Part shown: piece after piece, positions 839 to 39,842 of the stretch | Position numbering within the stretch: the stretch's first letter is position 1 | Layout of the letters: each line of letters starts with the position of its first letter | Source: an uncultured Acidimicrobiaceae bacterium | GTDB lineage: Bacteria > Actinomycetota > Acidimicrobiia > Spongiisociales > UBA5794 | Reading direction: 5' to 3' | Length of the DNA stretch: 64,000 nt | Assembly (NCBI GenBank): GCA_964387145.1 | Contig: CAYLVM010000002.1 | Coordinates: 31,763 to 95,762 of the forward strand | Program-made: the position numbers and the translations under genes | Notes under the pieces: model-generated | The model's input: the letters and a program-made list of their open reading frames with translations, nothing else | The model's database searches: none | What the model was told of the DNA's origin: nothing

Positions 839-853
839 GGTCGCTCGCTCGCC

Positions 854-2860
<2,007 letters not shown>

Positions 2861-2902
2861 TCAGGGCTGAAAACCCCTTGTCTACCGGCACGAATAGGTG
2901 AT

Positions 2903-3229
2903 TCAGGGGGACCCGATCTGTAGTCGAATCGACTGCACCAGGTCGTCACCGTACTCGCGTGAAATCACCGCGAGAAGGGCCTCGGTCTGGTACCTCAGCA
3001 GGGACCCGATCGTCCCATCGGGAACTGCTACGAGGAGCACGCCATCGCGCACGCCGATCGGTTCCCCGGCCTTCCAGTCGCCCGGCGCAAACGAACTCCA
3101 GGTATCGATCATCTCGGCCTGGCGAACATCGACACCGGCGGCAGCACCCTCGATCACCGATCCGAGGACCTGGCTGATCTCGGTGAGTTGTTTCTGTGGT
3201 CCATTGGTGAGGTACTTGGCTCGCATCAC
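2903..3229 (-). CDS. DUF721 / DciA-like protein (Rv0004-like)
   Basis: 108 aa ORF between recF and gyrB, the conserved position of the DUF721 protein in actinobacterial oriC regions. Confidence 0.55.
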   Translation of the reverse strand: MMRAKYLTNGPQKQLTEISQVLGSVIEGAAAGVDVRQAEMIDTWSSFAPGDWKAGEPIGVRDGVLLVAVPDGTIGSLLRYQTEALLAVISREYGDDLVQSIRLQIGSP

Positions 3230-4321: not shown

Positions 4322-5401
4322 TCAGAGGCGCACGGGCATCAACAGATACCGGAAATCGACCTTGTCTGCTCCGTGAATGAGTCCTGGCTTGAGTGGATCA
4401 CTCGTCTCGATCACGATCCGTTCGTCGTCGACGGCAGTGATGCCATCGGTCAGGTACCTCGTGTTGAACGCGATCGTCATGTCCTCGCCGCTGTACTCAC
4501 CTTCGAGAAGTTCGGTTGCCTCTCCCACTTCCTGGCGAATGACACTCAACTCGACACCGCCGCTGTGCATTGCAAGACGAACGGGGATGTGATCCTCGGC
4601 GACGAGTGCCGCACGGCCGACTGCATCGAGCAGCGCTGCCTTCTCGAGAACGAGCCTGTTCGAGTGTCCCTCCGGGAGGAGTTGCCGGTAATTCGGGAAC
4701 GTCGCATCGATCACACGGACGGTCAAGCGACCGTGATCGGTCACGAAAGTCGCCTCGCGCTCCCCGAGCGCAACCTTCATCTTGCCAACGCCGACGGTCT
4801 TGCCGAGCTCCCGAAGGGCACGGTACGGCACCAGCCGAGACCTCTCCGTCGTCACACCGGGAACATCCTTGACGGCGAGGCGGTACGAGTCCGTCGCAAC
4901 GAGACGCAGTGCGTCGTCGTTCGCCTCGAACAGCACACCGGTGAGCGTCGGACGGGCATCGTCGGAGGACGCAGCAACACCGACCTGGCTCAGGGCACGG
5001 GTGAGATCTCCACCATCGACGGTCACCGCATCGGTGATATCGGCATCGGTGATCTTGGGGTAATCGTCGACTGCCATCTCACGAAGCTTGAACCGCGGAC
5101 CACTTCCCGTGATCTCGACCTCTCCCTCGTTCGATGCAAGCGTCACCGCTCCCGGCGGGAGCTTGCGCACAGCCTCAGCTGCCAACTTTGCTGGGATGAC
5201 CGTCTTGCCCTCGTCGGTCACCTCTACTTCGAGATACGTCCGAACCGTGATCTCGTTGTCCGTACCCGTCACGGTCAGTTTTCCGCCGACGACGTCGCAC
5301 AGAACACCCTGGAGAATCGGGAGTGGTGATCTCGTGCCGACCGCTCGTGCTGCTCTCACGAGCACGTCGGCCAGATCGTCTCGTTCCGCTCTGATTCGCA
5401 C
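4322..5401 (-). CDS. dnaN: DNA polymerase III beta sliding clamp
   Basis: 359 aa; beta-clamp-like sequence; canonical position downstream of dnaA. Confidence 0.93.
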   Translation of the reverse strand: MRIRAERDDLADVLVRAARAVGTRSPLPILQGVLCDVVGGKLTVTGTDNEITVRTYLEVEVTDEGKTVIPAKLAAEAVRKLPPGAVTLASNEGEVEITGSGPRFKLREMAVDDYPKITDADITDAVTVDGGDLTRALSQVGVAASSDDARPTLTGVLFEANDDALRLVATDSYRLAVKDVPGVTTERSRLVPYRALRELGKTVGVGKMKVALGEREATFVTDHGRLTVRVIDATFPNYRQLLPEGHSNRLVLEKAALLDAVGRAALVAEDHIPVRLAMHSGGVELSVIRQEVGEATELLEGEYSGEDMTIAFNTRYLTDGITAVDDERIVIETSDPLKPGLIHGADKVDFRYLLMPVRL

Positions 5402-5588: not shown

Positions 5589-6968
5589 TCATCTTGTCCC
5601 CAGCTGTTGAGTGATGTCGGTGACCTGGTCGTAGACATCCTTGTCGGTCTGAAGGAGACCCTTGATCTTGTCGACGGCGTGCATCACGGTCGTGTGATCT
5701 CTGCCACCGAACGCCTGGCCGATCCGGGGAAGCGACAGCCCTGTGTGTTCCCGACAAACGTACATGGCGATCTGCCTCTGCCTGGCGAGAGGTTGGCGCC
5801 GCGAACTGCCGGTGAGCTCGGATCGAGGTATCTCGTAGTACTGCCCTACCGAGGAGATGATGATGTCGGCCGTCAGAGGTTCCTCGGACTGAAGACGGAC
5901 AACGTCTCTCAGAACCGACGAGGCGAGTTCGAGGGTGACGCGTTCGTGTGTCAACGTCGAGAATGCGGTGACACGGGTCAAGGCCCCCTCGAGCTCACGG
6001 ATGTTGTCCGCAACGTTCTGGGCGATGAACTCGAGGACGGTATCGGGAACCGGCGTCGTCGTTTCCGAAGCGTTCTTTCGCAGGATCGCCAGCCGCGTCT
6101 CTATGTCAGGACTCTGGATGTCGGTGGTGAGCCCCCACTCGAAGCGGCTCCGCAACCTGTTCTCGAGTGTGCGGAGGTCGCGAGGAGAGCGATCCGAAGA
6201 GATGACGAGCTGGTTCCCAGCCTCGTAGAGCGAGTTGAACGTGTGGAAGAACTCCTCGAGCACCTGCTCCTTGCCTTCGAAGAACTGCACGTCGTCGAGG
6301 AGCAGCAGGTTCACCTTGCGGTAGCGATCCTTGAAGTTCTCCATCCGCTTGCGCCGGATCGAGTTGATGAAATCGTTGAAGAACGCCTCCGAAGTCACAT
6401 ACCTCACCGTTGCCGTCGGATCGAGTTCGAGACGGTGTTGGCCGACGGCGTGGAGAAGGTGCGTTTTTCCGAGGCCAGCGCTCGCGTAGATGAAGAGGGG
6501 GTTGTAGTGGCGTCCGGGCTGCTCTGCGACGGCCTGGGCTGCAGCATGTGCGAAGCGGTTGGACTGCCCGACGACGAAGTTCTCGAACGAGTATCGGGCA
6601 ACGAGGTTGGTCGTGACGGGGAAGCCGCCGTCGCCGGGAGGTGTCGTGTTGAACGTCGCTTGGAATGGGGCCGGCTCATCGGTTGCTACCGGAACCGGTG
6701 GAGCCGGGGCGACCTCGATCGATATCTCGAGCGGTTCGGCCCACACGGAGGCCGCGATCTCGTTGAGTTGATGTGTGTAGTTGTCCTCGACCCATGTGGC
6801 GTTGAAGCGGTTCGGCGCCACGAGTATCAGGGTCCCGTCATCGACGGACGCGGTCAGCGGCCGGATCCAGGTTTCCCACTTCGCAATACCGATGACGTCT
6901 CTCAGGCGACTGTGAAAAAGCTCAATTTGAGCGTCCACGGCCCCACGAGGTGTCTGTGTGACTCCCAC
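5589..6968 (-). CDS. dnaA: Chromosomal replication initiator DnaA
   Basis: 459 aa; AAA+ motifs (LFIYASAGLGKTHLLHA, LLLDDVQF) and C-terminal DNA-binding domain. Confidence 0.95.
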   Translation of the reverse strand: MGVTQTPRGAVDAQIELFHSRLRDVIGIAKWETWIRPLTASVDDGTLILVAPNRFNATWVEDNYTHQLNEIAASVWAEPLEISIEVAPAPPVPVATDEPAPFQATFNTTPPGDGGFPVTTNLVARYSFENFVVGQSNRFAHAAAQAVAEQPGRHYNPLFIYASAGLGKTHLLHAVGQHRLELDPTATVRYVTSEAFFNDFINSIRRKRMENFKDRYRKVNLLLLDDVQFFEGKEQVLEEFFHTFNSLYEAGNQLVISSDRSPRDLRTLENRLRSRFEWGLTTDIQSPDIETRLAILRKNASETTTPVPDTVLEFIAQNVADNIRELEGALTRVTAFSTLTHERVTLELASSVLRDVVRLQSEEPLTADIIISSVGQYYEIPRSELTGSSRRQPLARQRQIAMYVCREHTGLSLPRIGQAFGGRDHTTVMHAVDKIKGLLQTDKDVYDQVTDITQQLGTR

Positions 6969-7897: not shown

Positions 7898-8185
7898 GTG
7901 ACCGATCGATCAGATGAACCTGTCTCGCCCGTCTCCCGGGTCGTGCTTGGGACGATCCGGCTGTACCAGAAGCTGATATCGCCTCTGCTGACGAGCAACT
8001 GTCGCTACCACCCGAGCTGTTCTCACTACACATATGAAGCTATCGAGATCCACGGCGCCGGCAAGGGCTCCTGGCTCGGCATCAAACGCATCGGTCGTTG
8101 TCACCCTTTCCATAAGGGTGGGGTGGATCCGGTTCCCGGATCTCCTGGAAGCATGGCTGAGACGACGAAAGGGAGCCCTTCGTGA
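7898..8185 (+). CDS. yidD: Membrane protein insertion efficiency factor YidD
   Basis: 95 aa with the conserved YQKLISPLL...[10 protein letters not shown] motif. Confidence 0.85.
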
Positions 8186-9120
8186 ATCCGTGGCAACTGC
8201 TGCTCGACCTCCTCGGGAGCATTCTGTCGTTCTACTACGACCTCATTCCAGAATATGGAATATCCATCATTCTTCTCACCCTGACGGTGAGCCTCCTGCT
8301 GTTCCCCCTGACGCTCAAGCAGACGAAGTCCATGCGAGCGATGCAGGAGATCCAACCAGAGGTCAAGCGCTTGCAGAAGGAGTACAAGGGAGAGAAGGAG
8401 GAGCTGAACAAGCGACTCATGGCCCTGTATCAGGAACGCGGTGTCAACCCCGCTGCAGGGTGTCTCCCCCTCGTCATCCAGATGCCTATATGGTTCGCTC
8501 TCTACCGGGTCCTGTGGCGTGGCAACGGCATCCCCTCTGGCTCGGTGCTCAGCTCGGTGATCGAGACGGCGAACAACGCCCTCTACACCGTGGATGCCTC
8601 CGGGGATCTGACAACAACGCTGAAGGCGGGTGTCGACATCGCCTCGAAGCAGTTCGACCATGTCACGTTCCTCGGCATGAACCTGATGGTTCGGCCTTCC
8701 CAGGCCGTCGACTTCGGCAATCCACTGGGTGCTCTCCCCTACCTCATCCTGATCGCCATCATCGTTGTCGCCGGGTTCTATCAGCAGGTTCAGACGACCC
8801 GCAAACGGAAGAACGCACCCGATACCGACGCTCCACAGAACTCGCAGATGCAGGGGATGCAGAACGCCATGAAGATCATGCCCGTGGTCTTCGGCTTCAT
8901 CTCCTGGAACTTCGTTGCAGGCCTCGGTCTGTACTTCGCCACATCGAACGCTTTCCGAGTAGGTCAGCAGGCCATCATCCTGCGCCAACACGGTGACGAC
9001 AACGGCGATACGAAGGGGAAGGGTGCCGAAACCGGCACCGATGAACCGTCCGACGAGCCGGAGGGCAGCGGTCCATCACCCAATGCGAGTAAGAAGCGCA
9101 ACCGCAGAAGAAGGAAGTAG
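8182..9120 (+). CDS. yidC: Membrane protein insertase YidC
   Basis: 312 aa; YidC/Oxa1 family sequence ([16 protein letters not shown]); basic C-terminal tail. Confidence 0.9.
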
Positions 9121-9124
9121 CCCG

Positions 9125-10006
9125 ATGGAGTGGGTCGAAGTACAGGGGAAGACCGTCGAGCTCGCCGTAGAAGTGGCGCTCGGCGAACTCGGTATCGAAT
9201 CGAAGGACGATGCACAGATCGAGGTGATCCAGGATCCTAAACCCGGGTTTCTCGGTATGGGAGGCCGCGAAGCCATCGTGAAGGTGACGCGTGCACCCAA
9301 ACAACGTCGCAAACGTCGTCGGAGTCGCGGGTCAAAGGGCTCGGACAAATCCGATGGAGCAGGCCAGCAGGGGAACGGAGCCAAGAAGCCGTCCCAGGAA
9401 CGATCCGGAAAGGATCAGAAGGGTCCGCAGAAGTCGAAGCCCAAGCAACAGCAGAAGAACAATGAGAAGCGACGTCAGGAGAAGAAGGTGTCGGAACCAA
9501 ACACAGCGTCGCAGCAGCCGCGCGATGATCGCCCGGAACAAGCACCCATCGAGGAACAAGCAGAGGTAGCCGCTGCCTTTGTCCGAGGGCTCCTCGGCGC
9601 CTTCGGCCTCGAGGGAGAAGTGGTGACTCGTATCGAGGACGAGGTCCTCTACCTCGACGTCAGCGGGGAACAGACAGAAGCACTCATCGGGCCGAAAGGG
9701 TCGGTGATGCACTCCGTTCTCGAGTTGACGCGAACCGTCGTCCAGCGCAAGACGTACGGCGCACCTCGTATGAGAATCGATATCGGTGGCTACCTCGAAC
9801 GGCGCCGCGAAGCCCTCAAGATCTACGCAGGCAAACTTGCCGAGCAGGTGATCGAGGACAAGAACGAGATCATGCTTGAACCGATGAACGCAGCCGACCG
9901 TAAGGTGGTCCACGACGCCGTCGCGGAGATCGAGGGCGTTCGGTCCTACTCCGAAGGGGAGGATCCCCGTCGTGCGGTCGTACTGGCATACAACGGCGAC
10001 GAGTAA
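9125..10006 (+). CDS. jag: Jag/KhpB-like RNA-binding protein (Jag_N, KH, R3H)
   Basis: MEWVEVQGKTVELAVEVALGELG N-terminus typical of Jag; lysine-rich linker; R3H-like C-terminus; conserved position after yidC. Confidence 0.8.
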   Translation: MEWVEVQGKTVELAVEVALGELGIESKDDAQIEVIQDPKPGFLGMGGREAIVKVTRAPKQRRKRRRSRGSKGSDKSDGAGQQGNGAKKPSQERSGKDQKGPQKSKPKQQQKNNEKRRQEKKVSEPNTASQQPRDDRPEQAPIEEQAEVAAAFVRGLLGAFGLEGEVVTRIEDEVLYLDVSGEQTEALIGPKGSVMHSVLELTRTVVQRKTYGAPRMRIDIGGYLERRREALKIYAGKLAEQVIEDKNEIMLEPMNAADRKVVHDAVAEIEGVRSYSEGEDPRRAVVLAYNGDE

Positions 10007-10052: not shown

Positions 10053-10068
10053 GGTTTCACGTGAAACG
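10053..10068. promoter_or_regulatory. parS site 2 (GTTTCACGTGAAAC core), overlaps the rsmG start codon
   Basis: Second identical palindrome 40 bp after the first. Confidence 0.8.
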
Positions 10069-10687
10069 GTCCGACGCCGCATTCGAGCGAGTGGCCCGCT
10101 GGTTGGAGATCCCACTGGATCTCAACCAGCGGGCCTTGCTTGTGCGGTATGAGGAGTGGTTGGGGACGGAGGCGGTCAGTGCTGGAGGTATCGGACCGCA
10201 CGAGGTCGATCGATTGTTCGACCGGCACATCCTCGACTCACTCGCCTATCTCAGAGGTTGTCCGATGGAGGCCTCCACGCTACTCGACGTTGGCGGCGGG
10301 GTGGGCCTGCCGTCGATCCCGATCGCTGTTGCACGACCCGATCTTGCAGTGACGATGGTCGACAGGTCGGAGAACAGATCGCGACTCGCGCGACGCGCTC
10401 TTCGCATCCTCGGAATCACGAACGTCGAGGTGGCCACGGTGGATGTGGATGCTCTGTCGGATCGGTTCGACACGGTGACGTTCCGGGCCTCGTTGAGGAT
10501 CGAGGACGCTGCCCGGGCCACGGTCAAGCTGACGGGGCCCCAGGGCGTTGGAGTATTCGGGGTGTCGCGGCGTCCCGAGGAGCCGACGATCCCTAGCGCG
10601 CCGGCGGGTGTTACCTTCACCCTGTCATCCGAGGGCAGCGGGGTCCTTGACTCGCCGTTCTGGCTCCTTAGGATGCAACGTACCTGA
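10061..10687 (+). CDS. rsmG: 16S rRNA (guanine527-N7)-methyltransferase RsmG/GidB
   Basis: 208 aa; SAM methyltransferase motif LLDVGGGVGLPSIPIA; conserved position before parAB. Confidence 0.85.
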   Translation: MKRSDAAFERVARWLEIPLDLNQRALLVRYEEWLGTEAVSAGGIGPHEVDRLFDRHILDSLAYLRGCPMEASTLLDVGGGVGLPSIPIAVARPDLAVTMVDRSENRSRLARRALRILGITNVEVATVDVDALSDRFDTVTFRASLRIEDAARATVKLTGPQGVGVFGVSRRPEEPTIPSAPAGVTFTLSSEGSGVLDSPFWLLRMQRT

Positions 10688-10714: not shown

Positions 10715-11491
10715 ATGTCTCAGGGAAAGATCGTGGCGATCGCCAACCAGAAGGGTGGTGTGGGCAAGTCCACAACCGCCATCAACCTGGGGGCGGGCCT
10801 CGCCTTCCAGGATGAGCGGATCCTGATCGTCGACCTGGATCCCCAGGGGAATACGACTTCGGGACTCGGCATCGATCGAAACTCCATCGATCAGTCGATG
10901 TACGACGTCCTCGTGGAGGGTACGGGCATGGAGGATGTCCTTGAGCCGACATCGGTGAAGGACCTCCACGTCGTGCCGGCGACGATCGAGTTGGCGGGAG
11001 CCGAGATCGAACTCGTCTCGATGATGTCGAGAGAGCAGCGACTCAAACAGGCCATTGCCCGGGTGATCGACGAGTACGATTTCATCCTCATCGACTGTCC
11101 ACCGTCTCTTGGTCTGTTGACGATCAACGGCCTGGCAGCTGCGGATGAGGTCATGATCCCGATCCAGTGCGAGTACTACGCCCTCGAGGGAGTCAGTCAG
11201 TTGACACGGAATATCGGTTTGGTCCAGGCGAACCTCAACCCTCAGCTTGAGGTTGAAGGTATCGTTCTGACGATGTTCGATGGAAGGACCACTCTTGCCA
11301 GCGACGTTGTGGCGCAGGTGAGGGAGCATTTCGGGGAGACGACGTACAAGACGGTGATACCGCGAACGGTTCGCCTGAGTGAAGCCCCGTCGTATGGAGA
11401 GCCGATCGAGGCGTACGACTCGATGTCACGAGGAGCCATCGCCTACCGGGAGTTGGCACGAGAGTTCAGGAGGCGTCATGGCCGCACGTAA
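10715..11491 (+). CDS. parA: Chromosome partitioning ATPase ParA/Soj
   Basis: 258 aa; deviant Walker A KGGVGKSTTAINLGA. Confidence 0.92.
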   Translation: MSQGKIVAIANQKGGVGKSTTAINLGAGLAFQDERILIVDLDPQGNTTSGLGIDRNSIDQSMYDVLVEGTGMEDVLEPTSVKDLHVVPATIELAGAEIELVSMMSREQRLKQAIARVIDEYDFILIDCPPSLGLLTINGLAAADEVMIPIQCEYYALEGVSQLTRNIGLVQANLNPQLEVEGIVLTMFDGRTTLASDVVAQVREHFGETTYKTVIPRTVRLSEAPSYGEPIEAYDSMSRGAIAYRELAREFRRRHGRT

Positions 11492-12335
11492 GAGTGGTTT
11501 GGGCAGGGGCCTCGATGCCCTGATCCCCCAGGAGCATCCGGAGTCCGGGTATGCGGAGATCTCGATCGATGCGATCCGTCCGAACCCGGATCAACCCCGT
11601 AGAGACTTCGACCAGGAGGCTCTCGATGCACTCGCAGCTTCTATCGCTGCGGTCGGCCTGTTGCAACCGATCGTCGTGCGTCCAGATGGTGAAGGGTATC
11701 TGCTCGTTGCTGGGGAGCGACGTTTACGCGCTTCCAAGCAGACTGGCATGGCGAGAATTCCAGCAGTCATCCGAGGTGGGTCCGAGAGTCGCTCGAACGT
11801 TACAGAGGCGTTGATCGAGAACCTTCAACGCGAGGACCTCTCCGTGCTCGAGGAGGCTGCCGCCTACGAACAGTTACTGGAAGAATATGGTATGACGCAC
11901 GAAGAGGTTGGTCACATCGTCGGAAAGAGTCGCAGTGCGGTCTCCAACACGGTTCGGCTTCTGGTACTTCCCGGCGCGATCCAGTCGATGCTGGTCGCGG
12001 GGCAGCTCACGGCGGGCCATGCAAGGGCGCTCCTTGGCACAGATGACGAGGCGTACGCGATGCACATCGCCAAGCGGGCAGTTGCAGAGGGTTGGACCGT
12101 TCGGCGCGTCGAGGAGGCGATCCGCCTGCGTTCGACGCAGACTGCTAGGTCGGGGGGATCCACCGGTTCCGTTCGGCCTGCTGCGATCATCGAACTCGAG
12201 CACAGGCTCCAGGATCGCCTTGAAACGAAGGTCAAGATCGACCACCGAGCCAAGGGCGGCAAGATCACGATCAAGTACACCTCGTCGCAGGACCTCGAGC
12301 GGATCTACCGCTACCTCTTCGACCCGTCGGGCTGA
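11478..12335 (+). CDS. parB: Chromosome partitioning protein ParB/Spo0J
   Basis: Start MAARKSGLGRGLDALIP overlaps the parA end; ParB box GERRLRAS; HTH region. Confidence 0.9.
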   Translation: MAARKSGLGRGLDALIPQEHPESGYAEISIDAIRPNPDQPRRDFDQEALDALAASIAAVGLLQPIVVRPDGEGYLLVAGERRLRASKQTGMARIPAVIRGGSESRSNVTEALIENLQREDLSVLEEAAAYEQLLEEYGMTHEEVGHIVGKSRSAVSNTVRLLVLPGAIQSMLVAGQLTAGHARALLGTDDEAYAMHIAKRAVAEGWTVRRVEEAIRLRSTQTARSGGSTGSVRPAAIIELEHRLQDRLETKVKIDHRAKGGKITIKYTSSQDLERIYRYLFDPSG

Positions 12336-13297
12336 GAGAGGACACCGTCTTCATACAGTGAGGCGATCACGTTGGCAACGACGCGGCCGACGCGACGGTT
12401 CATGGCGCGAACCGACACGACGATCGCAGGTGATCGCGTGTTCTTGAGGATCGGCATCGTGCGGCCGGCAGAGGAGAGGCCGAGCCGCTCACCAACGAGG
12501 TCGGCGACGGCCATTCCTGCTTCGGACCGGCTGTGTTCCGAGCTGAAGTAGAACACCGCCTCCTCGCCGTCCTGGGGGAGGAAGAACCCGATCACCATAT
12601 CGACGTTGAGCCGGTTCGCTCGTTGAGCGCGTATCGACGGCGGCGGGGACGTGTCGATGCTGTGGCTTATGATCGGATGCCCTCCGAGCAGTTGGATCGC
12701 TGCACTGGCCTCCATCGCCGCGTTCCACGTGGCACCGGACTCATCGTCTGTTCTGCACTCCGGATCGATGTAGATGCGTTGCCCTGTGATCGAATCGGGA
12801 AGGGTTTGGAGCCACTGTCGCTCGCGAACGGCTTCTCTCCCAGGCTTCTGCGTGGCACGCCCTACGAGCCGCAACTCGCTTGCAACGAGATCTCCGGCTA
12901 TACCGTCTTCGGCGAGGCTTCGATTGCGTTGAAAATCGAGAAGACCATGCAACGTGGCAGGGCCGAAGATGCCGTCGACCTTGTCGGTGTCGAATCCAAG
13001 AGAGTTCAAGCGCGCTTGGAGTTCCGCGACATCATCACCGCGCATCATCGGGACCCGGTGGTAGAGCATGCGGTCACCGAGCCGATATCCAGCATCTACC
13101 AGTGAGCGCCACGTGTCGGGACCGACGATCCCGTCCGTTGGAAGTCCACGGTCGGCCTGAAATCCGGCTACTGCGCGCTGTGTTCCCTCGTCGAACACGC
13201 CAGACGCGTCGTCTCCGGTATCGAATCCGAGTGCTGTGAGCCGGTCCTGGATATCACGTACGGGCTCACCGCGATCGCCTTGGTGAAAGAGCCTCAC
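12311..13297 (-). CDS. cwlM: N-acetylmuramoyl-L-alanine amidase, CwlM-like (2x peptidoglycan-binding domains plus Amidase_3)
   Basis: 328 aa; two PG_binding_1 repeats (RGEPVRDIQDRLTALGF, DDVAELQARLNSLGF) then an amidase_3-like domain; mycobacterial cwlM synteny next to trxA/trxB and parB. Confidence 0.75.
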   Translation of the reverse strand: MRLFHQGDRGEPVRDIQDRLTALGFDTGDDASGVFDEGTQRAVAGFQADRGLPTDGIVGPDTWRSLVDAGYRLGDRMLYHRVPMMRGDDVAELQARLNSLGFDTDKVDGIFGPATLHGLLDFQRNRSLAEDGIAGDLVASELRLVGRATQKPGREAVRERQWLQTLPDSITGQRIYIDPECRTDDESGATWNAAMEASAAIQLLGGHPIISHSIDTSPPPSIRAQRANRLNVDMVIGFFLPQDGEEAVFYFSSEHSRSEAGMAVADLVGERLGLSSAGRTMPILKNTRSPAIVVSVRAMNRRVGRVVANVIASLYEDGVLSQPDGSKR

Positions 13298-13323: not shown

Positions 13324-13650
13324 CTAGTTGACGAAGTCGGCAAGTTCTACCTGCAGTTGGCCTTTGCTCCGCGCACCGACGAAGCGACGCTTCTCCTCGC
13401 CGTCCTGGAAGACGATGAGGGTCGGGATGCTCATGACGGAGTAGGTGCTCATCGTTGCCGGGTTCTCGTCGACGTTGAGTTTCGCAACGGTGAGCTTGCC
13501 CGAGAGCTCCCCTGCGAGCTCATCGAGGGGGGTGTCCATCATCTTGCACGGGCCGCACCACTCGGCCCAGAAGTCCACGAGTGTTGGGGTTTCGGATGCA
13601 ATGATCGATGCGAAGTCTGCATCCGTCGCTGTGATTGTATTCTGACCCAT
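13324..13650 (-). CDS. trxA: Thioredoxin
   Basis: 108 aa; WCGPC active site. Confidence 0.92.
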   Translation of the reverse strand: MGQNTITATDADFASIIASETPTLVDFWAEWCGPCKMMDTPLDELAGELSGKLTVAKLNVDENPATMSTYSVMSIPTLIVFQDGEEKRRFVGARSKGQLQVELADFVN

Positions 13651-13706: not shown

Positions 13707-14627
13707 TCAGTCTTGTGCGTCGAGCCAGCGTTCGGTGTCGAGCGCTGCCTGGCACCCGAGACCTGCTGCCGTCACTGCTTGTCGGTACACCTTGTCTGTG
13801 ACATCGCCCGCGGCGTAGACACCTTCTACAGAAGTGCGTGTTTGGCCTGGTGGCGTAACGATGTAGCCGGCGTCGTCGAGTTCGAGGTGCCCCTCGAACA
13901 CGGAGGTATTGGGAGAGTGCCCGATGGCTACGAAGACACCGTCTGTAGACAACTCCTTGGTTTCATCGGTGAGCGTGTCTCGGAGCACGACTCCTGTGAC
14001 GAACTCGTCACCGAGGATCTCGTCGACCGTGGTGTTCCAGGCGACCTCGATCTTGGGATGGTTGATCACACGCTCTGACATGATGGTCGACGCCCGGAAC
14101 TCGTCGCGGCGATGGACCACGGTGAGCTTCGAGGCGAACTTCGTCAGGAAGATGGCTTCCTCCATGGCGGTGTCGCCGCCACCGACGACGACGAGTTCCT
14201 TGTCCCTGAAGAAGAACCCGTCACATGTGGCGCAGGCTGAAACGCCGTAGCCGCGGAGCCGCTCTTCGCCGGGAACGCCGAGCCACCGAGCAGAGGCACC
14301 GGTGGTGATGATGATCGAATCTGCCCGGTACTCGTCCTTATCCACCGACACCGTGAAGGGTCTCTTGGAGAAGTCGACATCGGTGACATTGGAACTGATG
14401 ATGCGGGTTCCGAAACGTTCGGCCTGTTTGCGAATCTGGTCCATGAGGTCTGGACCCATGATGCCGTCTGGGAAGCCGGGGAAGTTCTCGACGTCCGTTG
14501 TGATCATGAGTTGACCACCCCGCTCCATCCCCTCGATCATGAGGGGTTCGAGTCCGGCACGAGCGGCGTAGATGGCTGCGGTCAGGCCTGCGGGGCCTGA
14601 GCCGATGATGAGGACCTGCTCGGTCAT
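13707..14627 (-). CDS. trxB: Thioredoxin-disulfide reductase
   Basis: Start MTEQVLIIGSGPAGLTAAIYAARAG; redox CATCDG motif; the longer upstream extension in the ORF track is unlikely. Confidence 0.9.
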   Translation of the reverse strand: MTEQVLIIGSGPAGLTAAIYAARAGLEPLMIEGMERGGQLMITTDVENFPGFPDGIMGPDLMDQIRKQAERFGTRIISSNVTDVDFSKRPFTVSVDKDEYRADSIIITTGASARWLGVPGEERLRGYGVSACATCDGFFFRDKELVVVGGGDTAMEEAIFLTKFASKLTVVHRRDEFRASTIMSERVINHPKIEVAWNTTVDEILGDEFVTGVVLRDTLTDETKELSTDGVFVAIGHSPNTSVFEGHLELDDAGYIVTPPGQTRTSVEGVYAAGDVTDKVYRQAVTAAGLGCQAALDTERWLDAQD

Positions 14628-14629
14628 GC

Positions 14630-14935
14630 TCACTCCTGTTGTGGATCTCGGTCTTGGGGAAACCGCCGCGACCAGATGAAGGCTCCTACGAGGATCAGGA
14701 TCAGGCCCACAGCGGCATACGCTGTTTCCGTACCGATCAGCGTTCCGAGAGCCCGAAATATTCCAACGAGTAGCCAGAAGATGCCCATCACCGAGGTGAC
14801 GACGAGGATGAGGCCGATCGCTGCCCACGTGATGCCGGTTGCAGCCTTATCTACGGACAGCTCACGGATTCGGCTCGCCACCATCTCGAGGAAGTCGGCG
14901 ATACGGGCGGAAAGGGGAGGACTGGGTTCGACCAT
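14630..14935 (-). CDS. Small hypothetical membrane protein (2 TM)
   Basis: 101 aa hydrophobic ORF whose stop overlaps the trxB start. Confidence 0.4.
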   Translation of the reverse strand: MVEPSPPLSARIADFLEMVASRIRELSVDKAATGITWAAIGLILVVTSVMGIFWLLVGIFRALGTLIGTETAYAAVGLILILVGAFIWSRRFPQDRDPQQE

Positions 14936-14975: not shown

Positions 14976-15791
14976 TCAAGGGAGTGTGGCGGTCACCCGA
15001 CACGTCTCGAGGTCGAGACTGATGACGCTCGTCACCGTTCCCTCTATTCCGACACCGAGGTGAACAACCTGTGCCCCCTCTGTCGTAGTCGCCGCCAACG
15101 GTGTGAGCTCATCGTCGGGAAGGGAGTCCCCGAGCCGGTCGATACAGTCCTCGAGGACAGCGACTTCGACAGTGGTCATCGCTGCCTCGTCCTCGACGAA
15201 CTTCTGCATATCAGCACTCGTCGTATCGAGCTCTCGGAGTGAAGTGAGGAGGAGACCGACGTCCGACGTTGGTATCTCGGTGAGGGCCAGGAACTCGATG
15301 CCGACATCACCAGCGGGAGCGGAGGTCACGGTTGGTGCCGACTCGGCTGTGCCGCCGTCGCCGCCGTCGGCAAGACCGGTGATCTCCTGAGTGCTGAGGG
15401 AGTCGGTTGCCACGAGGGCGACATCTTCAGCGGCATCGTTGCCGGACAACAGACCCGGGACCGCAACGAAGGCAACGGCGACCGCGGCGACCGCGGCGAG
15501 CCCCGCCACCGGCTTCCACCACCGAGACCGGGGCTGGGGAGCAGGCGTAGCTGTGGCTGTGGGTTCGAGATGGAGTTGTGTCACGAGATTCGATCGCAAC
15601 GTCGACCGCTCCAAGGCATTCAGCGTGACGGCGGGGAGATCATCGAGTGCCTCGATGACGGTGATCTGTGCTGCGAGTTCGCTGGCGAGCTCCTGGTCGG
15701 AAGCGACCAGCGCTCGGGCGCGCTCTTCATCTTCTCCGCTGAGAGCTCCCTGTGCCAGGGCGAGGACGATCTCGATGTCGCTGTCTTTCAT
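14976..15791 (-). CDS. Putative anti-sigma factor (RsmA-like), membrane-anchored
   Basis: 271 aa; start overlaps the stop of the upstream ECF sigma gene (translational coupling); central TM segment; acidic N-terminus. Confidence 0.55.
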   Translation of the reverse strand: MKDSDIEIVLALAQGALSGEDEERARALVASDQELASELAAQITVIEALDDLPAVTLNALERSTLRSNLVTQLHLEPTATATPAPQPRSRWWKPVAGLAAVAAVAVAFVAVPGLLSGNDAAEDVALVATDSLSTQEITGLADGGDGGTAESAPTVTSAPAGDVGIEFLALTEIPTSDVGLLLTSLRELDTTSADMQKFVEDEAAMTTVEVAVLEDCIDRLGDSLPDDELTPLAATTTEGAQVVHLGVGIEGTVTSVISLDLETCRVTATLP

Positions 15792-16372
15792 GATTCTCCG
15801 CTGTCCCCGTTTGGATGCTTATCGGGGGGCCTCAGGTTCCCGAGACTTTGAGATAGTTGTTTGCGGGCCCGGAACAATCGACTCTTGATGGTTCCGACCG
15901 GTACTTCGAGGGTATCGCTTGCCTGCTCAAGCGACATGCCCTGAAGGTCGACGAGCACGATCGCAGCCCTGAAGTCGGCACTGAGGTCGGCGAGGGCCTC
16001 CTCGATGTCGGGGCGCACCTCGACGGCTTCGAGCAGGCTCTCCGTCGAGGGGTCCGGGCTGTCGTGTCCCTCTGGGATACTGGTCGTGCGCTTTCGCTTC
16101 GCCCGACGGAGATGGTCGTAGCAGGTGTTGACGGCCACCCGGTAGAGCCAGGTGGAGAAGGCAGCCTTCGCCTGGTACCGGTCCGCCTTGCGGAAGACCG
16201 TCAGGAAGGTGTCTTGCGTTGCGTCGAGCGCTGCCTCCCTGTCACGCAACATGCGCAGACATACAGCGAACACACGGTCTTCGTGGGCATCCATGAGTTC
16301 GTTGAATGCATCGATGTCACCTTTGAGATAGCGATCGATCAACTCGATGTCGAGGTGGGCCCTGTCGGTCAT
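15788..16372 (-). CDS. ECF-family RNA polymerase sigma factor (SigM-like)
   Basis: 194 aa; sigma-70 region 2 (FTVFRKADRY..WLYRVAVN) and region 4 (EQASDTLEVPVGTIKSRLFRARKQL). Confidence 0.85.
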   Translation of the reverse strand: MTDRAHLDIELIDRYLKGDIDAFNELMDAHEDRVFAVCLRMLRDREAALDATQDTFLTVFRKADRYQAKAAFSTWLYRVAVNTCYDHLRRAKRKRTTSIPEGHDSPDPSTESLLEAVEVRPDIEEALADLSADFRAAIVLVDLQGMSLEQASDTLEVPVGTIKSRLFRARKQLSQSLGNLRPPDKHPNGDSGES

Positions 16373-16411: not shown

Positions 16412-17698
16412 TCAGGGGGTGAAGGAGACGTCGCGGATCTCAGCGCGGTACGACCCGTCCTGCTGCTCGGGAAGGTCGGTGAGCCACAGGCGCCAAAGAC
16501 CTCCCCCACGGAGAGGAAGTTGCATGCGCACCTCGGCCGCCTGGAGTGTTCCTCTCGCAATGTGGCTCCAATCCCGGGGATCGTCGGGTACTGCTTCGGA
16601 CCAGCCGATCAGATACGTCGTGCCGGCCGTGCCTGTGATGTAGATGGCACCCGGAGTACCGGCGACGTCGAGGACGATCCCCACACCTTCCTTGATGTCG
16701 CGTATCGGCCGTGAGTACGCCTCGGTCGACCACGACGTGGACCGGTCCCCATCGATGGTGTTGTCGACCGTGTCGTCGCTCTCGGTGCCATCTCCGAGGG
16801 GGTCGTAGACGAGTGCAGTCGCCGGTAGTGCGTCCGTCCCCTCGGGTTCCTCGACGACGATCGGAGCGGTGACAGAAGGAGATGGTTGCTCGCCGGCGAC
16901 CGGGTAGAGGAAGGGAGAGTTCGGGTCGAAGTCGGTTGCAAGACCGATGGCAGCGAGGAGGGAGATCGCCACAGCGATTGCAGCGAACATCGCGAGCATC
17001 TTCCACGGTTTGGCCGGTTCGGGCTCTTCGGGAGGATGATACTCCGTCGATGCGAGGGCGTTCGCGAGGCCCGCAGCGTCGAGGGTGCCTGCGATCCCAG
17101 CCGAAAGGGCATCGTCGACCGCTTCAGGGAGGCCATCGATGACCGTCGAAGGCATCGTTCCAGCGTCGTGGGACCCGGTGATGGCCGCCCGAAGGACCTC
17201 GGCGAGGGCTCTCGTGTCCTCGGACTGCTCACTCCACCGGGGCCTGCGTCCGAACGCACCGAGCTTGACGGGGTGTGCAGCGGAGTAGTGAATGGCGGAC
17301 GCGTCGATGGCCCCATGGAGTCCGCCGGCTTCGTGGTACTTCCCAAGTGCCAAGCACAGGCCGGCGGCATTGGGAAGGAGTTCGTCCATAGGAAGTGCCT
17401 CTCCGGCGGCGATCCTGTCTTCGATCGTGACGCCGCCGTCCCACTCCGAGACCGAGTAAGCGGATGCTGCTGTATCTCCAGCGGCGAAGACGCGCTGGAG
17501 ATGAATCTCGGTGAGGGCGGCTGCAGACCGGACCTTGTCGAGGAACGACTCCCGACGCTCGGGAGAGGATTCAGGGGCAAGGTATCGGATCAGTACAGGG
17601 CGGTCGAGACGCTCGTCTTTGGCAAGCCACTCCTCGATGTCCCCGTCGCTCCCAAGCCGGATGTTCAGCCGGTATCGGTCGGGGAGTCTCGGGGGCAC
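16412..17698 (-). CDS. Membrane protein with a Ser/Thr kinase-like (probably catalytically dead) domain and C-terminal extracytoplasmic domain
   Basis: 428 aa; kinase N-lobe-like N-terminus, but HRD is replaced by HGA and DFG by AFG; single TM (LAMFAAIAVAISLLAAIGLA); resembles the mycobacterial MviN/MurJ C-terminal pseudokinase module without the flippase domain. Confidence 0.55.
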   Translation of the reverse strand: MPPRLPDRYRLNIRLGSDGDIEEWLAKDERLDRPVLIRYLAPESSPERRESFLDKVRSAAALTEIHLQRVFAAGDTAASAYSVSEWDGGVTIEDRIAAGEALPMDELLPNAAGLCLALGKYHEAGGLHGAIDASAIHYSAAHPVKLGAFGRRPRWSEQSEDTRALAEVLRAAITGSHDAGTMPSTVIDGLPEAVDDALSAGIAGTLDAAGLANALASTEYHPPEEPEPAKPWKMLAMFAAIAVAISLLAAIGLATDFDPNSPFLYPVAGEQPSPSVTAPIVVEEPEGTDALPATALVYDPLGDGTESDDTVDNTIDGDRSTSWSTEAYSRPIRDIKEGVGIVLDVAGTPGAIYITGTAGTTYLIGWSEAVPDDPRDWSHIARGTLQAAEVRMQLPLRGGGLWRLWLTDLPEQQDGSYRAEIRDVSFTP

Positions 17699-17700
17699 GT

Positions 17701-18435
17701 CTACCCCGCTTTGAGGACGGCGAGGGACTCAGGGAGCTGGACGTATCCCTCGGACTCGTAGAGAGCGAGGGCAGGGTCGTTGTCGCGTTGCGTGTTGAGG
17801 AGCAGCGCCTTGGATCCATGCCTTCGTGCACTGCGGGATGCGGCCCGCACGAGGCTTCGACCCATCCCTTGTCCTTGCCACACAGGATCGACGGCGACCC
17901 TCTGGAGATAGGAGATGGCGTGGCCGTATCCAACGACGGCGTACCCCGTGATACCGAGGTCACCGTCACGGATCACGAAGACGGATGATCGCGAGGTTGC
18001 CTGGGTGGACTCGACGAGAGATGTGCGGTCGAATCGCCAGAATGGGTCGAACGCTGCCTGATCGATCGAGAGCATCTGATCGATGTCGTAGTCATCGTTT
18101 CGCACGACAAGGTGGCGAGGGGCAGGAACGGGCGCTTCGAGTCCGAGACGCATGAGGGCGAGTTCGAGGAACTCGACGAACCCAGCAGCCTCCCACGGCT
18201 TCCGTGCGGAAGGTGCAAGAGGAGAGGAGAACACCGAGGGTGCCCCAAGGTGTGTGAGGCGTTGGACACAGGCATCGATGAAACCGGTTCCGCCCCTCAC
18301 GAGGCGCAGTGTGGCGTCCTCGACGGCGTCGTTCCATGGGCGAGCTTCGGCTCGTGCCCAACCGCGCCGAAGCGAGATGGGGCCCGGCCATACTCCTCTT
18401 TGAAATACACGATGTGGGGTGTCGGCTAACGCCAT
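17701..18435 (-). CDS. GNAT family N-acetyltransferase
   Basis: Acetyl-CoA binding motif RVAVDPVWQGQGMGRSLV; start chosen at MALADTP. Confidence 0.7.
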   Translation of the reverse strand: MALADTPHRVFQRGVWPGPISLRRGWARAEARPWNDAVEDATLRLVRGGTGFIDACVQRLTHLGAPSVFSSPLAPSARKPWEAAGFVEFLELALMRLGLEAPVPAPRHLVVRNDDYDIDQMLSIDQAAFDPFWRFDRTSLVESTQATSRSSVFVIRDGDLGITGYAVVGYGHAISYLQRVAVDPVWQGQGMGRSLVRAASRSARRHGSKALLLNTQRDNDPALALYESEGYVQLPESLAVLKAG

Positions 18436-18514
18436 GACCTCTCCCGGAGTCCTGCCACGCACTCCGTAATGTACCCCCGATCGCGACGTGCCCGGCGCAT
18501 GGCAGAATCGGACC

Positions 18515-19528
18515 ATGACGCTCCTCCTTGTTTCCCACGAACTCGGCCTAGCTCATCGCGTCCCTCGCGGGCACCCTGAGCGAAGGGAACGCCTCACCGC
18601 AACCTTGAATGGCCTGCACCGCTTGACGTGTGGTGTGGTGGATAGGGAGGCCCCCAGAGTCGATCGGCGGTTGCTCGAAGAGATTCACGACGCCTCGTAC
18701 ATCGAGGAGGTACGTCGGTTCTGTGAGGAGGGAGGGGGATCGTTCGACCCGGACACGTACGCCGTCCCTGCATCGTTTGCTGCTGCCCTCCACGCAGCGG
18801 GAGCAGGACCGTACGCCGTCGACGCCCTCATACGAGGCGAGGCGAAGACCGGGTTCGTCGCTGTCCGCCCCCCAGGCCATCACGCCGAGCGCCATCAGGC
18901 GATGGGTTTCTGCCTCTTCAACAACATCGCGGTGACCGCATCGTATCTGCGACGTGAGGGCCATCGGGTAGCGATCGTGGACTGGGATGTCCACCATGGC
19001 AACGGCACACAGAACTCGTTCTGGTTGGAACCCGACGTTCTCTACGTGTCCCTTCACGAGTTTCCCTTCTACCCGGGGACAGGGTGGTTGAGCGAGACCG
19101 GGGTAGGAGAGGGAGCGGGAGCCACCGTGAACATTCCACTCCCCGGCGGGACCTCGAGCAATGACTATCTGGCAGCATTCGCGCGGATCGTTGTTCCCGT
19201 TGTGCGACAGTTCGCGCCCGACTGGATACTGGTGAGCGCAGGCTACGACGCACACGTGTCAGATCCTCTTGGCGGTCTCTGCCTCGAATCGAGCGACTAT
19301 CGAGCGATGGCAGGGGCGCTCGCCGAGATCGTTCCCCCGCAACGGATCGTTGCCTTTCTCGAGGGCGGCTACGATCTCGATGCCCTTGCAACGTCCTCCC
19401 AAGCAACGGTCGAGGGGGTGCTCAACGGTGCGCAGCAGTTTCCGTGGCCGAGCGTCATCGATGGGTCGGCCGCCAGGATCATCGATCTTGTCGTGGAGGG
19501 TGTTGGACGCTACTGGGACCTCGACTAG
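18515..19528 (+). CDS. Histone deacetylase superfamily protein (AcuC/acetoin utilization / acetylpolyamine amidohydrolase-like)
   Basis: Arginase/deacetylase fold motifs VDWDVHHGNGTQ and SAGYDAH. Confidence 0.8.
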   Translation: MTLLLVSHELGLAHRVPRGHPERRERLTATLNGLHRLTCGVVDREAPRVDRRLLEEIHDASYIEEVRRFCEEGGGSFDPDTYAVPASFAAALHAAGAGPYAVDALIRGEAKTGFVAVRPPGHHAERHQAMGFCLFNNIAVTASYLRREGHRVAIVDWDVHHGNGTQNSFWLEPDVLYVSLHEFPFYPGTGWLSETGVGEGAGATVNIPLPGGTSSNDYLAAFARIVVPVVRQFAPDWILVSAGYDAHVSDPLGGLCLESSDYRAMAGALAEIVPPQRIVAFLEGGYDLDALATSSQATVEGVLNGAQQFPWPSVIDGSAARIIDLVVEGVGRYWDLD

Positions 19529-19598: not shown

Positions 19599-20711
19599 GT
19601 GAGTCGAACCGGAGGACACGTGCCAGACCAGATACCGACGCTTGGGGAACTCCTTGGAAAACTCGTGGAGATACACGGTTCCGACCTGCATCTCAAAGTG
19701 GGATCACCCCCTGCGTACCGGATCGACGGAGCGCTGCACCTCGCCGAACTTCCACCGCTCACCCCGGAACAAACCGAAGCCCTGCTCAGCGACCTCCTTC
19801 CGAGCCACCTTCAAGGGAGAGCATCTGAGACAGCGGACCTCGATTTCGCCTACGGCGAAGCGGGCCTCGGCCGGTTCCGTGTCAACAGCTACCGTCAGCG
19901 TGGTTCGATCAATCTCGTCGTTCGGTCTGTTGCCCCGGCCTCAACGGCCTTTCCCGACCTTGGACTCCCTGAAGGTGTCGTGAGAGCGTGTGACGAACGT
20001 GACGGGCTGATCCTCGTCACGGGTCCGACCGGTGCAGGAAAGACGACGACATGTGCAGCGATGATCGACCACATCAACGAGAGCCGTCGTGTGAACATCA
20101 TCACGATCGAGGACCCGATCGAAGTTCTCCACAGGGACAAGAGAGCGATCGTGTCACAGCGGGAGGTCGGCGTTGACACGCCCTCGTACGCCGAGGGGAT
20201 GGCATCGGTCATACGGCAGGATCCCGACGTCATCTACGTCGGCGAACTGCGTGACGCAGAGACGATGCAGGCTGCACTCATCGCGGCAGAGACGGGCCAC
20301 CTCGTGATCTCGACGATGTACACGATCGATGCAGTCGAGACTGTTCATCGAATCCTCGACAGCTTCCCCCCGTACCTCGAACGGAGGGTTCGTCAGATGC
20401 TCGGTACGACGCTTCGTGCCATCGTGTCCCAGCGGCTCATCCCCAAGATAGAGGGCCCCGGAAGGGTCCTTGCCGCCGAGTTGCTGTTCAACACCGAAGC
20501 CGTTCGTGAGCATCTCGTCGATGCAGACAAGATGCCAGAACTGTTCGAGACGATCGCCGAGGGGGCGTTCTACGGCATGAAGACGTTCGACCAGGCGATC
20601 ACCGAGAGGTATGAGGCGGGAGACATCTCGTTCTCCGATGCCCTCTCATTCGTCACCTCTCCGAGGGACTTCAAGCTGGCGACTGGAGTGGCGACCACAC
20701 CCGGCCTGTGA
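19599..20711 (+). CDS. pilT: Type IV pilus twitching-motility ATPase PilT family
   Basis: 370 aa; Walker A GPTGAGKTTT; PilT-specific sequence. Confidence 0.82.
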   Translation: MSRTGGHVPDQIPTLGELLGKLVEIHGSDLHLKVGSPPAYRIDGALHLAELPPLTPEQTEALLSDLLPSHLQGRASETADLDFAYGEAGLGRFRVNSYRQRGSINLVVRSVAPASTAFPDLGLPEGVVRACDERDGLILVTGPTGAGKTTTCAAMIDHINESRRVNIITIEDPIEVLHRDKRAIVSQREVGVDTPSYAEGMASVIRQDPDVIYVGELRDAETMQAALIAAETGHLVISTMYTIDAVETVHRILDSFPPYLERRVRQMLGTTLRAIVSQRLIPKIEGPGRVLAAELLFNTEAVREHLVDADKMPELFETIAEGAFYGMKTFDQAITERYEAGDISFSDALSFVTSPRDFKLATGVATTPGL

Positions 20712-29455: not shown

Positions 29456-30238
29456 GTGACGCTGAAACAGCGTGCACTCCGACCGCTATACCGCCTGTAC
29501 GAAGAGAGGCTGTCGTCACGACTCGACAGTGATCGACTGCCGAGCCACATCGGTGTCATCCACGATGGGCACCGCAGGTATGCCAGGCAAGAGGGCCTCC
29601 CCGACTACGAGGCGTCCTACAGGGTCGGTATGGACAAGTTCGTCGAGTTCCTCGAGTGGACCGCCGACCTCGAGATCGACACGGTGACGTGCTGGTTGTT
29701 GTCGACGGAGAACCTCGCGCGTCCTGCCGATGAGTTGCGGCCGTACTACACGGTGTTGATCGATCTCTTCAACCGCATCCCCGAGACACCTGCCGGGCAT
29801 GATGTCCGGGTGAAGTTCATCGGTTCGCTCGACCTCCTTCCCTCCGACCTCGTCGAAGCTGCGAAACGTCTGGAGGAGAGGTGTTCCGCTGGTTCGCGCC
29901 GCGTCACGATCGCCCTCGCCTACGGTGGCCGCCAGGAGATCGTCGACGCCGTCAAGGATCTTGTGAGCGACCTTGCGGGTCGCGGGATGAGCGCCGTCGA
30001 GATAGCCGACCACATCGACCGCGACGCCATGTCGGCACGCATGTACGCATCGGATCTCCCCGATCCCGACCTCGTTCTGCGTACCTCAGGTGAAGCCAGG
30101 CTCAGCGGCTTCATGCTCTGGCAGGCAGCGTATGCGGAGTACTCGTTCGTCGATGTCTACTGGCCTGCATTCCGCAGGGTCGACTTCCTGCGCGCCATGC
30201 GTGAGTACACCCACCGCGAACGCCGCTACGGCAAATAA
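29456..30238 (+). CDS. uppS: Isoprenyl (undecaprenyl/decaprenyl) diphosphate synthase, cis-IPPS family
   Basis: HIGVIHDGHRRYA...ENL... and LVLRTSGEARLSGFMLWQAAYAEYSF motifs. Confidence 0.85.
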   Translation: MTLKQRALRPLYRLYEERLSSRLDSDRLPSHIGVIHDGHRRYARQEGLPDYEASYRVGMDKFVEFLEWTADLEIDTVTCWLLSTENLARPADELRPYYTVLIDLFNRIPETPAGHDVRVKFIGSLDLLPSDLVEAAKRLEERCSAGSRRVTIALAYGGRQEIVDAVKDLVSDLAGRGMSAVEIADHIDRDAMSARMYASDLPDPDLVLRTSGEARLSGFMLWQAAYAEYSFVDVYWPAFRRVDFLRAMREYTHRERRYGK

Positions 30239-39302: not shown

Positions 39303-39842
39303 CTAGTACCACCAGTTGTGGAAGGGGACGGGTGGGCCGACGGGGGTCGCCCGCGACGATGGGCGTGCGGGGAACCATGCGAGTTCGCGTCCCGTGCCGT
39401 CCGCCGTTGCCGCCGACAGGGCATGAACGCCTCGCAGACCGAGGCCGTGCACGAAGGCACCGATGGGCTGGCAGGTCTCATGGGGGACACGATCGCCTGC
39501 ATCGTCGAGCGGGTAGGACACGGGTAGGCCGAGCGCTTCGAGTCCATCCCCCGTCAACGCGTCGGCGACCCTCTGGCGCGACGGCAGTGTCACGGAGATC
39601 AACACGAGAGGTGCGTCGAGGTCTTCGGGGCGTACCGGCGAGCCCTCGAGCATGCGGTAGATCTGAGAACGGGCCGTGTCGAGATCCTCGTTGAGGTAGA
39701 GCGTGGGAAACGACGCCGGCGGGTTCCACCGCCCACCGTGGTGCTGGGCGTACGAGGGGTCGAGGGGATCGTCCCAGTTGGTGTCCGCGACACGAAGCCA
39801 TGTCTGGCCGTCACGGAGGCCTTCCGCTATCGGATCGATCAT
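39303..39842 (-). CDS. RES domain toxin (MbcT/Res-like NAD+-targeting toxin)
   Basis: 179 aa; RES-domain-like motifs GGRWNPPASFPTLYLNEDLDTA...E. Confidence 0.75.
   Translation of the reverse strand: MIDPIAEGLRDGQTWLRVADTNWDDPLDPSYAQHHGGRWNPPASFPTLYLNEDLDTARSQIYRMLEGSPVRPEDLDAPLVLISVTLPSRQRVADALTGDGLEALGLPVSYPLDDAGDRVPHETCQPIGAFVHGLGLRGVHALSAATADGTGRELAWFPARPSSRATPVGPPVPFHNWWY

Follow-up and report, generated by a model that had tools for sequence, protein, structure and literature searches.

Our results suggest that a gene annotated from sequence alone as a membrane pseudokinase, in a 64,000-nucleotide stretch of DNA from an uncultured Acidimicrobiaceae bacterium (contig CAYLVM010000002.1, hereafter the window), belongs to a family best known from its fusion to the lipid II flippase MurJ in mycobacteria. 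The open reading frame (ORF) at 16412-17698 on the minus strand encodes a bitopic membrane protein of 428 residues, made of a dead kinase fold, one transmembrane helix and an extracellular domain that is probably of the discoidin or carbohydrate-binding module (CBM) type. On balance, it is probably the pseudokinase module that accompanies MurJ in Actinobacteria, here in free-standing form, and would work as a scaffold or sensor in the membrane, acting in trans on the precursor pathway of the cell wall, on the SigM response, or on both.

The ORF is genuine and conserved, and its start is well defined. Its product has more than 500 matches among database proteins, which come from metagenome-assembled genomes (MAGs) of uncultured Acidimicrobiia. 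The best 120 of these are 60-99% identical to it, nearly all have 428-429 residues, and all begin with MPPRLP, which confirms the GTG start (the coordinates include the stop codon). Its GC content at third codon positions (GC3) is 0.74, like that of other coding ORFs of the window, where overall GC content is 62%.

The similarity to kinases is weak for the single sequence and strong for the family. Alone, the protein scored 12.2 bits against PK_Tyr_Ser-Thr of Pfam, under the cut-off of 23.1, and matched PknB_PASTA_kin of NCBIfam (E 1.4e-10) and the kinase domain of Mycobacterium tuberculosis PknB in the PDB (E 4.5e-10). A family profile built from 41 full-length relatives, of 22-78% identity, matched PknB at 1.9e-47, PknA at 5e-37 and the kinase-homology domain of M. 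tuberculosis Rv3910 (MviN) at 6e-21, the latter match being collinear over residues 7-223. Individually, 34 of the 41 relatives matched PK_Tyr_Ser-Thr or Pkinase in Pfam. By these sequence matches, the superfamily is that of the Hanks-type Ser/Thr kinases. The domain has the bilobal kinase fold, and PknB is its best match both by sequence and by structure. The initial annotation had assigned a kinase fold to the N-terminal ~270 residues and named a search with kinase profiles as one way to check it; that search upholds the fold. The length was overestimated: the kinase-like domain has ~216 residues, because its activation loop is deleted.

This cytoplasmic domain (residues 1-216; 17051-17698, minus strand) was delimited by the alignment with PknB, the AlphaFold2 (AF2) model and the family profile. 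In the PknB alignment, the beta3 Lys motif VAVK reads VLIR (K40 is replaced by R38), the catalytic loop HRDVKPAN reads HGAIDASA (H128-G129-A130 in place of HRD, A135 in place of the catalytic Asn) and DFG reads AFG, with A148 at the position of the Asp. The same alignment places L36 at the C-spine Ala and E23 at the beta2 Val. The G-loop carries two acidic residues, D18 and D20, and keeps two glycines. Only ~12 residues separate AFG from the Asp of the alphaF helix (D161), hence the deletion of the activation loop. Since R38, A130, A135 and A148 replace the catalytic residues, this is a pseudokinase and not an active kinase; having lost all four, it is predicted to be catalytically dead. HGA, AFG and the loss of activity had all been proposed from the sequence at the outset, and all three stand. 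The H-G replacing HRD, the loss of the DFG Asp and the short activation loop are common to all 41 relatives, among which the beta3 position varies between R, K, E and A.

Conservation is concentrated in the N-lobe. In the close family, residues 1-90 are on average 83% identical to the query, with 56 invariant columns out of 90, against a mean of 64-67% for the C-lobe and the ectodomain, and 39% for the juxtamembrane tail (residues 217-231; 17006-17050, minus strand), which is the least conserved part. Five residues of the kinase domain are invariant in all 41 relatives: D28, L31, R33, E85 and G89. The invariant L31 aligns with PknB L33, and the conserved R8 with PknB R10. These two residues of PknB were reportedly described by Lombana et al. 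in 2010 as part of the back-to-back dimer interface. The interface is not identical here, as PknB D76 is replaced by A72. The constraints of the ActPs3/MviN family of pseudokinases have been placed at the N-lobe dimer interface (PMC12599244).

As the initial annotation had it, the protein crosses the membrane once (residues 232-255; 16934-17005, minus strand): its sequence has a single hydrophobic segment, where the Kyte-Doolittle profile peaks at 234-254 and the AF2 model has a helix at 232-254. K230 and K233 flank the start of this helix which, by the positive-inside rule, suggests an N-in topology. The extracytoplasmic part was put at ~170 residues. Indeed, 173 residues lie outside, and the folded domain within them covers residues 293-428 only (16415-16822, minus strand). 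It is preceded by a Pro/Ser-rich linker (residues 256-292; 16823-16933, minus strand) modelled with low confidence (predicted local distance difference test, pLDDT, below 50 for 271-286). The folded part was modelled as all-beta with pLDDT 90-97, in an AF2 model made from a broad alignment of relatives that replaced a poor one from a shallow alignment (pLDDT 65.7). The ectodomain of the window protein itself has no match in Pfam. Its probable assignment to the F5/8 type C (discoidin)/CBM beta-sandwiches comes from the AF2 model and from the relatives, which matched PF00754 F5_F8_type_C (7 of 41, best 2.7e-7), the NedA-like galactose-binding domain PF22633 (5 of 41) and CBM_AftD (4 of 41). It is also 36% identical to the F5_F8_type_C segment of P0237, a fusion with MurJ that we describe below. 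P300, D316, T321, W323, G338, G340 and W405 are invariant across relatives of 22-78% identity, which argues for a conserved ligand site.

The pseudokinase stands alone, as initially noted. It has its own MPPRLP start, a GNAT acetyltransferase gene lies upstream, and it is not fused to a 14-transmembrane MurJ domain. We scanned one genome per GTDB species, which gave 37 loci, all from uncultured Acidimicrobiia-type MAGs, and added three further contigs. Wherever sequence was available, these ~40 loci share one gene order. Genes for pcnA, RNaseH, a pilT-like ATPase and an HDAC-family deacetylase lie on one side and point away from a series made of GNAT, pseudokinase, sigma factor, anti-sigma factor, trxB, trxA and cwlM-like genes, with parB beyond. 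The GNAT gene is immediately upstream of the pseudokinase in every one of the 40 loci with upstream sequence. None of these independent assemblies has murJ within 10 kb of the pseudokinase. A tblastn search of the 64-kb window with three MurJ domains (best E 0.9) and a DUF6049 protein (0.07) found nothing, not even a murJ remnant, and a homolog search with the MurJ of locus L005 returned that lineage only. A murJ ORF hidden by an assembly or frameshift error, which would have refuted the initial annotation, is ruled out by the tblastn result and the shared gene order, whose invariance across ~40 assemblies also excludes truncation or mis-assembly. A 45%-identical relative has the order GNAT, DegV, pseudokinase and sigma, again with no murJ nearby. 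Judging from these gene orders, what is particular to the Acidimicrobiia clade is that murJ is gone from the locus and that a GNAT gene is coupled in the place held by murJ elsewhere. Three of the GTDB representative MAGs (L032, L034 and L038) are titled Kiloniellales, Acidobacteria and Armatimonadetes, yet carry the typical Acidimicrobiia locus; they are likely binning contamination or mislabelled bins.

A link to the mycobacterial module is given by P0237, a protein of 1116 residues found with the family profile. It has a Pfam MurJ domain (39-495), a weak Pkinase match and F5_F8_type_C, and is itself a pseudokinase (VLVH, HER, GFG). The family aligns with it by hhalign at 99.4% and E 6e-22, collinearly over 5-425 versus 599-1113, and by BLASTP in both the kinase domain (6e-14) and the ectodomain (2e-14). 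Its locus consists of pcnA, an Rv3909-like gene, the MurJ-pseudokinase fusion, an ECF (extracytoplasmic function) sigma gene and, further on, trxB and trxA. With the profile match to Rv3910 and the shared locus, this bears out the proposed likeness to the MviN/MurJ C-terminal module. Other genomes have murJ and the pseudokinase as separate neighbours. In the complete genome of Acidothermus cellulolyticus 11B (CP000481), a MurJ of 559 residues is followed by two small genes, the pseudokinase Acel_2145 (473 residues), an ECF sigma factor, an RsmA-like anti-sigma factor, trxB, trxA and cwlM. In Thermopolyspora flexuosa the order is DUF6049, MurJ (539 residues), pseudokinase (509 residues), sigma, RsmA-like, trxB and trxA. 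The same split pattern is found in an Acidothermus MAG and an Actinomycetota MAG, and in a soil metagenome contig (L045) the two genes are 13 nt apart. By position, upstream of sigM, the window gene is thus equivalent to both the free and the fused forms. The initial annotation had suggested a detachable module for the CwlM/PknB circuit, and here it has to be revised: on the loci compared, the stand-alone form is common in non-mycobacterial Actinobacteria, several MAG lineages included, and this genome is in no way unusual in having it. Several orders have the free form, and so does the deep-branching class Acidimicrobiia; the simplest reading of this distribution, which does not come from a phylogeny, is that the mycobacterial fusion is derived and that the window gene is no detached copy. 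In other lineages, the pseudokinase gene, free or MurJ-fused, ends 4-8 nt inside the ECF sigma gene that follows it, its stop codon overlapping the sigma start: this is the case in L005 (9331-9338), L043 (11305-11308) and L044 (13348-13351). The overlap suggests translational coupling in these loci; the gap in the window is 39 nt.

The comparison with known systems shows both kinship and distance. The C-terminal module of M. tuberculosis MviN/MurJ (PDB 3OTV, 3OUN and 3UQC; TM15) has, like the window protein, a dead Hanks fold with a shortened activation loop, one transmembrane segment and an extracellular CBM/discoidin-type domain, and Rv3910 likewise lies directly upstream of sigM-rsmA-trxB-trxC-cwlM near oriC. 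Unlike Rv3910, the window protein is not fused to a 14-transmembrane MurJ, and murJ is not in its locus. The two modules have only ~20% identity, and their motifs differ: VLIR/HGA/AFG in the window protein and VALT/LSI/Y-- in M. tuberculosis (PMC12599244). The linker E541-F680 of M. tuberculosis MurJ, essential and bound by CwlM (PMC6180346), has no counterpart in the window protein. The free-standing pseudokinases adjacent to murJ in non-mycolate Actinobacteria (Acel_2145, those of T. flexuosa and Nonomuraea) share its full-length architecture, with a collinear hidden Markov model match over 5-427 (E ~1e-25), its H-G motif, the loss of the catalytic Asp residues and the position upstream of sigM. 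They follow murJ and DUF6049 at a distance of 0-2 genes, whereas the window lacks both and a GNAT gene precedes. They are also 22-29% identical to the Acidimicrobiia proteins and longer (445-650 versus 428 residues). This murJ-adjacent family is probably ActPs3 of the atlas of bacterial serine/threonine kinases. ActPs3 is an actinobacterial pseudokinase family that includes M. tuberculosis MviN, lacks the catalytic triad, has a deletion of ~40 residues in the activation loop and often has a transmembrane segment C-terminal to the domain (10.1101/2025.01.12.632604; PMC12599244). The window protein fits each of these features by description: triad loss, activation-loop deletion and C-terminal transmembrane segment. 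PknB (Rv0014c) resembles it in the conserved N-lobe, including the positions of R10 and L33, but is active, with K40/D138/N143/D156 intact, a phosphorylatable activation loop and a PASTA instead of a discoidin-type ectodomain. The window gene thus adds a member to a type of pseudokinase already known, with a clade-wide twist: at this locus murJ was lost and a GNAT gene gained. Relatives from cultured organisms are labelled 'protein kinase family protein' at NCBI, and the papers that we found on this module do not discuss free-standing copies beside murJ.

On the reading that we favour, the pseudokinase would phosphorylate nothing and would serve as a non-catalytic bitopic scaffold or sensor in the membrane. 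Its ectodomain would bind cell-wall glycan, the conserved N-lobe of its dead kinase domain may form dimers or bind a partner, be it a PknB-type kinase or some other protein, and glycan binding outside the cell could be coupled in this way to dead-kinase signalling in the cytoplasm. The module might then tune, in trans, the supply or export of peptidoglycan precursors via MurJ and CwlM, the envelope response under SigM, or both. As murJ is away from the locus in the Acidimicrobiia clade, any control of MurJ must be intermolecular. What we observed are the fold, the dead site, the homology and the synteny; this ligand, these partners and this output, as well as what we say of ATP binding and dimerisation, we infer. 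In M. tuberculosis, the pseudokinase domain of MviN is fused to MurJ, binds FhaA and is followed by a tail that carries pThr947 (PMC10166564, PMC6180346), and non-phosphorylated CwlM binds the MurJ linker (PMC6180346).

Several observations weigh against extending this circuit to the window gene. The absence of murJ from the window, and within 10 kb in ~40 relatives, leaves a functional tie to MurJ hypothetical here. Active PknB (1.9e-47) is a closer sequence match to the family than the MviN pseudokinase is (6e-21), and the single window sequence does not detect 3OTV at all, so that orthology rests on synteny and one fused intermediate. The juxtamembrane tail is at a position equivalent to the MviN tail, and the window protein has T218 in this region, but no Thr column is conserved there, residues 214-231 lack Thr altogether in 8 of 23 family members, and the equivalent of pThr947 does not seem to be conserved in the Acidimicrobiia family. 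With the low conservation of this tail and no fixed Thr, the alignments do not favour a conserved FhaA mechanism. The search for partner genes recommended by the initial annotation found no FHA, PknB or PASTA gene in the window, in a Pfam scan of ~50 ORFs that covered most predicted genes above ~200 residues and left several shorter genes outside. Finally, the Arg at position 38 is a conservative substitute for the beta3 Lys, and the protein may retain some binding of nucleotides.

Other readings of the gene deserve consideration. The real partner might be SigM/anti-SigM, with the pseudokinase-CBM protein being an extracytoplasmic sensor that modulates the downstream ECF sigma factor, for example by binding the anti-sigma factor, and the proximity to murJ being historical. 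We regard this as rather unlikely, even if the pseudokinase, free or fused, is immediately upstream of an ECF sigma gene in most lineages examined (overlapping it in L005, L043 and L044) and the ~40 Acidimicrobiia genomes keep the link to sigma though murJ is gone. In L045, murJ is followed by the pseudokinase without sigma or anti-sigma genes before trxB, which implies that the link to murJ can persist without sigM, and in M. tuberculosis the domain and MurJ form one polypeptide, with FhaA bound by the domain (PMC10166564, PMC6180346). We give still less credit to the idea that the protein acts on a PknB-like receptor kinase as a decoy or allosteric partner, engaged by back-to-back heterodimerisation of N-lobes and derived from an active discoidin-bearing kinase independently of MurJ. 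That PknB is the best match by sequence and structure and that the positions of its R10 and L33 are conserved would fit such a history, as would the existence of active kinases with the same ectodomain (P0205 and P0221, Pkinase E ~1e-47). Yet the salt-bridge partner of R10, PknB D76, is Ala72 here, and the synteny with pseudokinases beside murJ or fused to it speaks for an origin shared with the MviN module. This idea also overlaps the scaffold or sensor reading instead of excluding it.

An atypical active kinase or nucleotide-dependent enzyme, using R38 and other residues instead of the canonical triad, seems very improbable. The Lys-to-Arg change is conservative, the two glycines of the G-loop remain, and the pseudokinases ActPs2, KSR1 and EphB6, which have the same change, can still bind ATP (PMC12599244). 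But the HRD Asp, the catalytic-loop Asn and the DFG Asp were lost together with the activation loop, Leu36 occupies the C-spine position, Glu23 that of the beta2 Val, D18 and D20 lie in the G-loop, and the M. tuberculosis homolog binds neither ATP nor Mg (PMC12599244). We rejected the active-kinase reading on these motif grounds (HGA, AFG, lost Asn and deleted loop).

The locus falls between pcnA and parB, and the sigM-rsmA-trxB-trxA-cwlM neighbourhood recognised at first sight was recovered gene by gene, all on the minus strand. The ECF sigma factor (15788-16372), 39 nt downstream of the pseudokinase, has SigM as its best NCBIfam match (179.8 bits, just under the cut-off of 190). A putative anti-sigma factor gene (14976-15791) overlaps it by 4 nt and is followed by the thioredoxin reductase gene trxB (13707-14828; its real start is probably later, as homologs are called at 306-310 residues), the thioredoxin gene trxA/trxC (13324-13650) and a CwlM homolog (12311-13297). 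The latter has two PG_binding_1 domains and an amidase region that is 33% identical to that of Acidothermus CwlM (E 1e-40). This amidase looks degenerate, because it has no Pfam Amidase_3 match and its zinc-ligand motif 'LDPGHGG' reads 'IDPECRTDD'. The protein has 328 residues here, 378-389 in other Actinobacteria and 258 in the deeper relative L043. Upstream, the GNAT gene (17701-18516, minus strand) has its stop 2 nt before the pseudokinase start. It shows an N-terminal extension of ~130 residues, and its homologs are called at 244 residues; its true start is probably ~27 codons downstream of the listed ATG. The scan for promoters and terminators found nothing above background inside the operon and no terminator-like site from GNAT to anti-sigma. 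From this arrangement, the pseudokinase is predicted to be co-transcribed with GNAT upstream and with sigM, anti-sigma, trxB, trxA and cwlM downstream.

The HDAC-family deacetylase gene (18488-19528, plus strand) is divergent from GNAT, and the two listed ORFs overlap by 29 nt at their starts, at least one of which is probably mis-assigned. The gene for the PilT/PilU-family ATPase (19599-20711, plus strand; TIGR01420, 398 bits) lies between those for the deacetylase and RNase H/pcnA and has no further pilus genes around it; at L005, a distant locus from an Actinomycetota MAG, a homolog likewise adjoins pcnA. Past the CwlM homolog, the window spans the chromosomal origin region, with parB (11379-12335), parA (10715-11491), rsmG (10061-10687), jag (8993-10006) and a yidC-like gene (8182-9120) on the plus strand, then dnaA (5589-6968), dnaN (4322-5401) and gyrB (854-2797) on the minus strand. 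Elsewhere the window contains uppS (undecaprenyl-diphosphate synthase; 29456-30238, plus strand), a RES-domain protein (39303-39842, minus strand; Pfam RES E 5.8e-10) that probably acts as the toxin in a toxin-antitoxin pair of the RES-Xre type, and myo-inositol-1-phosphate synthase (41989-43071, minus strand), whose gene is also beside pcnA in L045. A long ORF at 60500-62122 (minus strand; GC3 0.84) has no Pfam match and could be a genuine gene from an unknown family. Two other ORFs without Pfam matches, at 587-2923 (plus strand) and 59031-60308 (minus strand), are probably shadow ORFs opposite gyrB and DUF1254/DUF1214.

For this genome, the gain is useful if fairly ordinary: an annotation more precise than the labels 'hypothetical protein' and 'serine/threonine kinase'. 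The wider interest lies in the circuit formed by the MviN pseudokinase, FhaA, PknB and CwlM, which is a model for mycobacterial control of peptidoglycan precursor export and has so far been treated as specific to the mycolata. That Acidimicrobiia, Acidothermus, Thermopolyspora and Nonomuraea encode the module separately at the corresponding locus suggests a greater age and autonomy of the module than one would gather from the mycobacterial fusion. Tentatively, the pseudokinase-CBM module could even be an ancient autonomous envelope sensor of Actinobacteria, with the SigM/anti-SigM-TrxB-TrxC-CwlM cluster and not MurJ as its constant partner, a late fusion in mycobacteria, and a rewiring in Acidimicrobiia to a co-transcribed GNAT without an adjacent flippase. 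Such a history would contradict the published statement that the extension is limited to arabinogalactan-bearing organisms (PMC10166564). In any case, these lineages offer natural split systems in which the interactions of the pseudokinase with the flippase, with CwlM and with SigM may be studied in trans.

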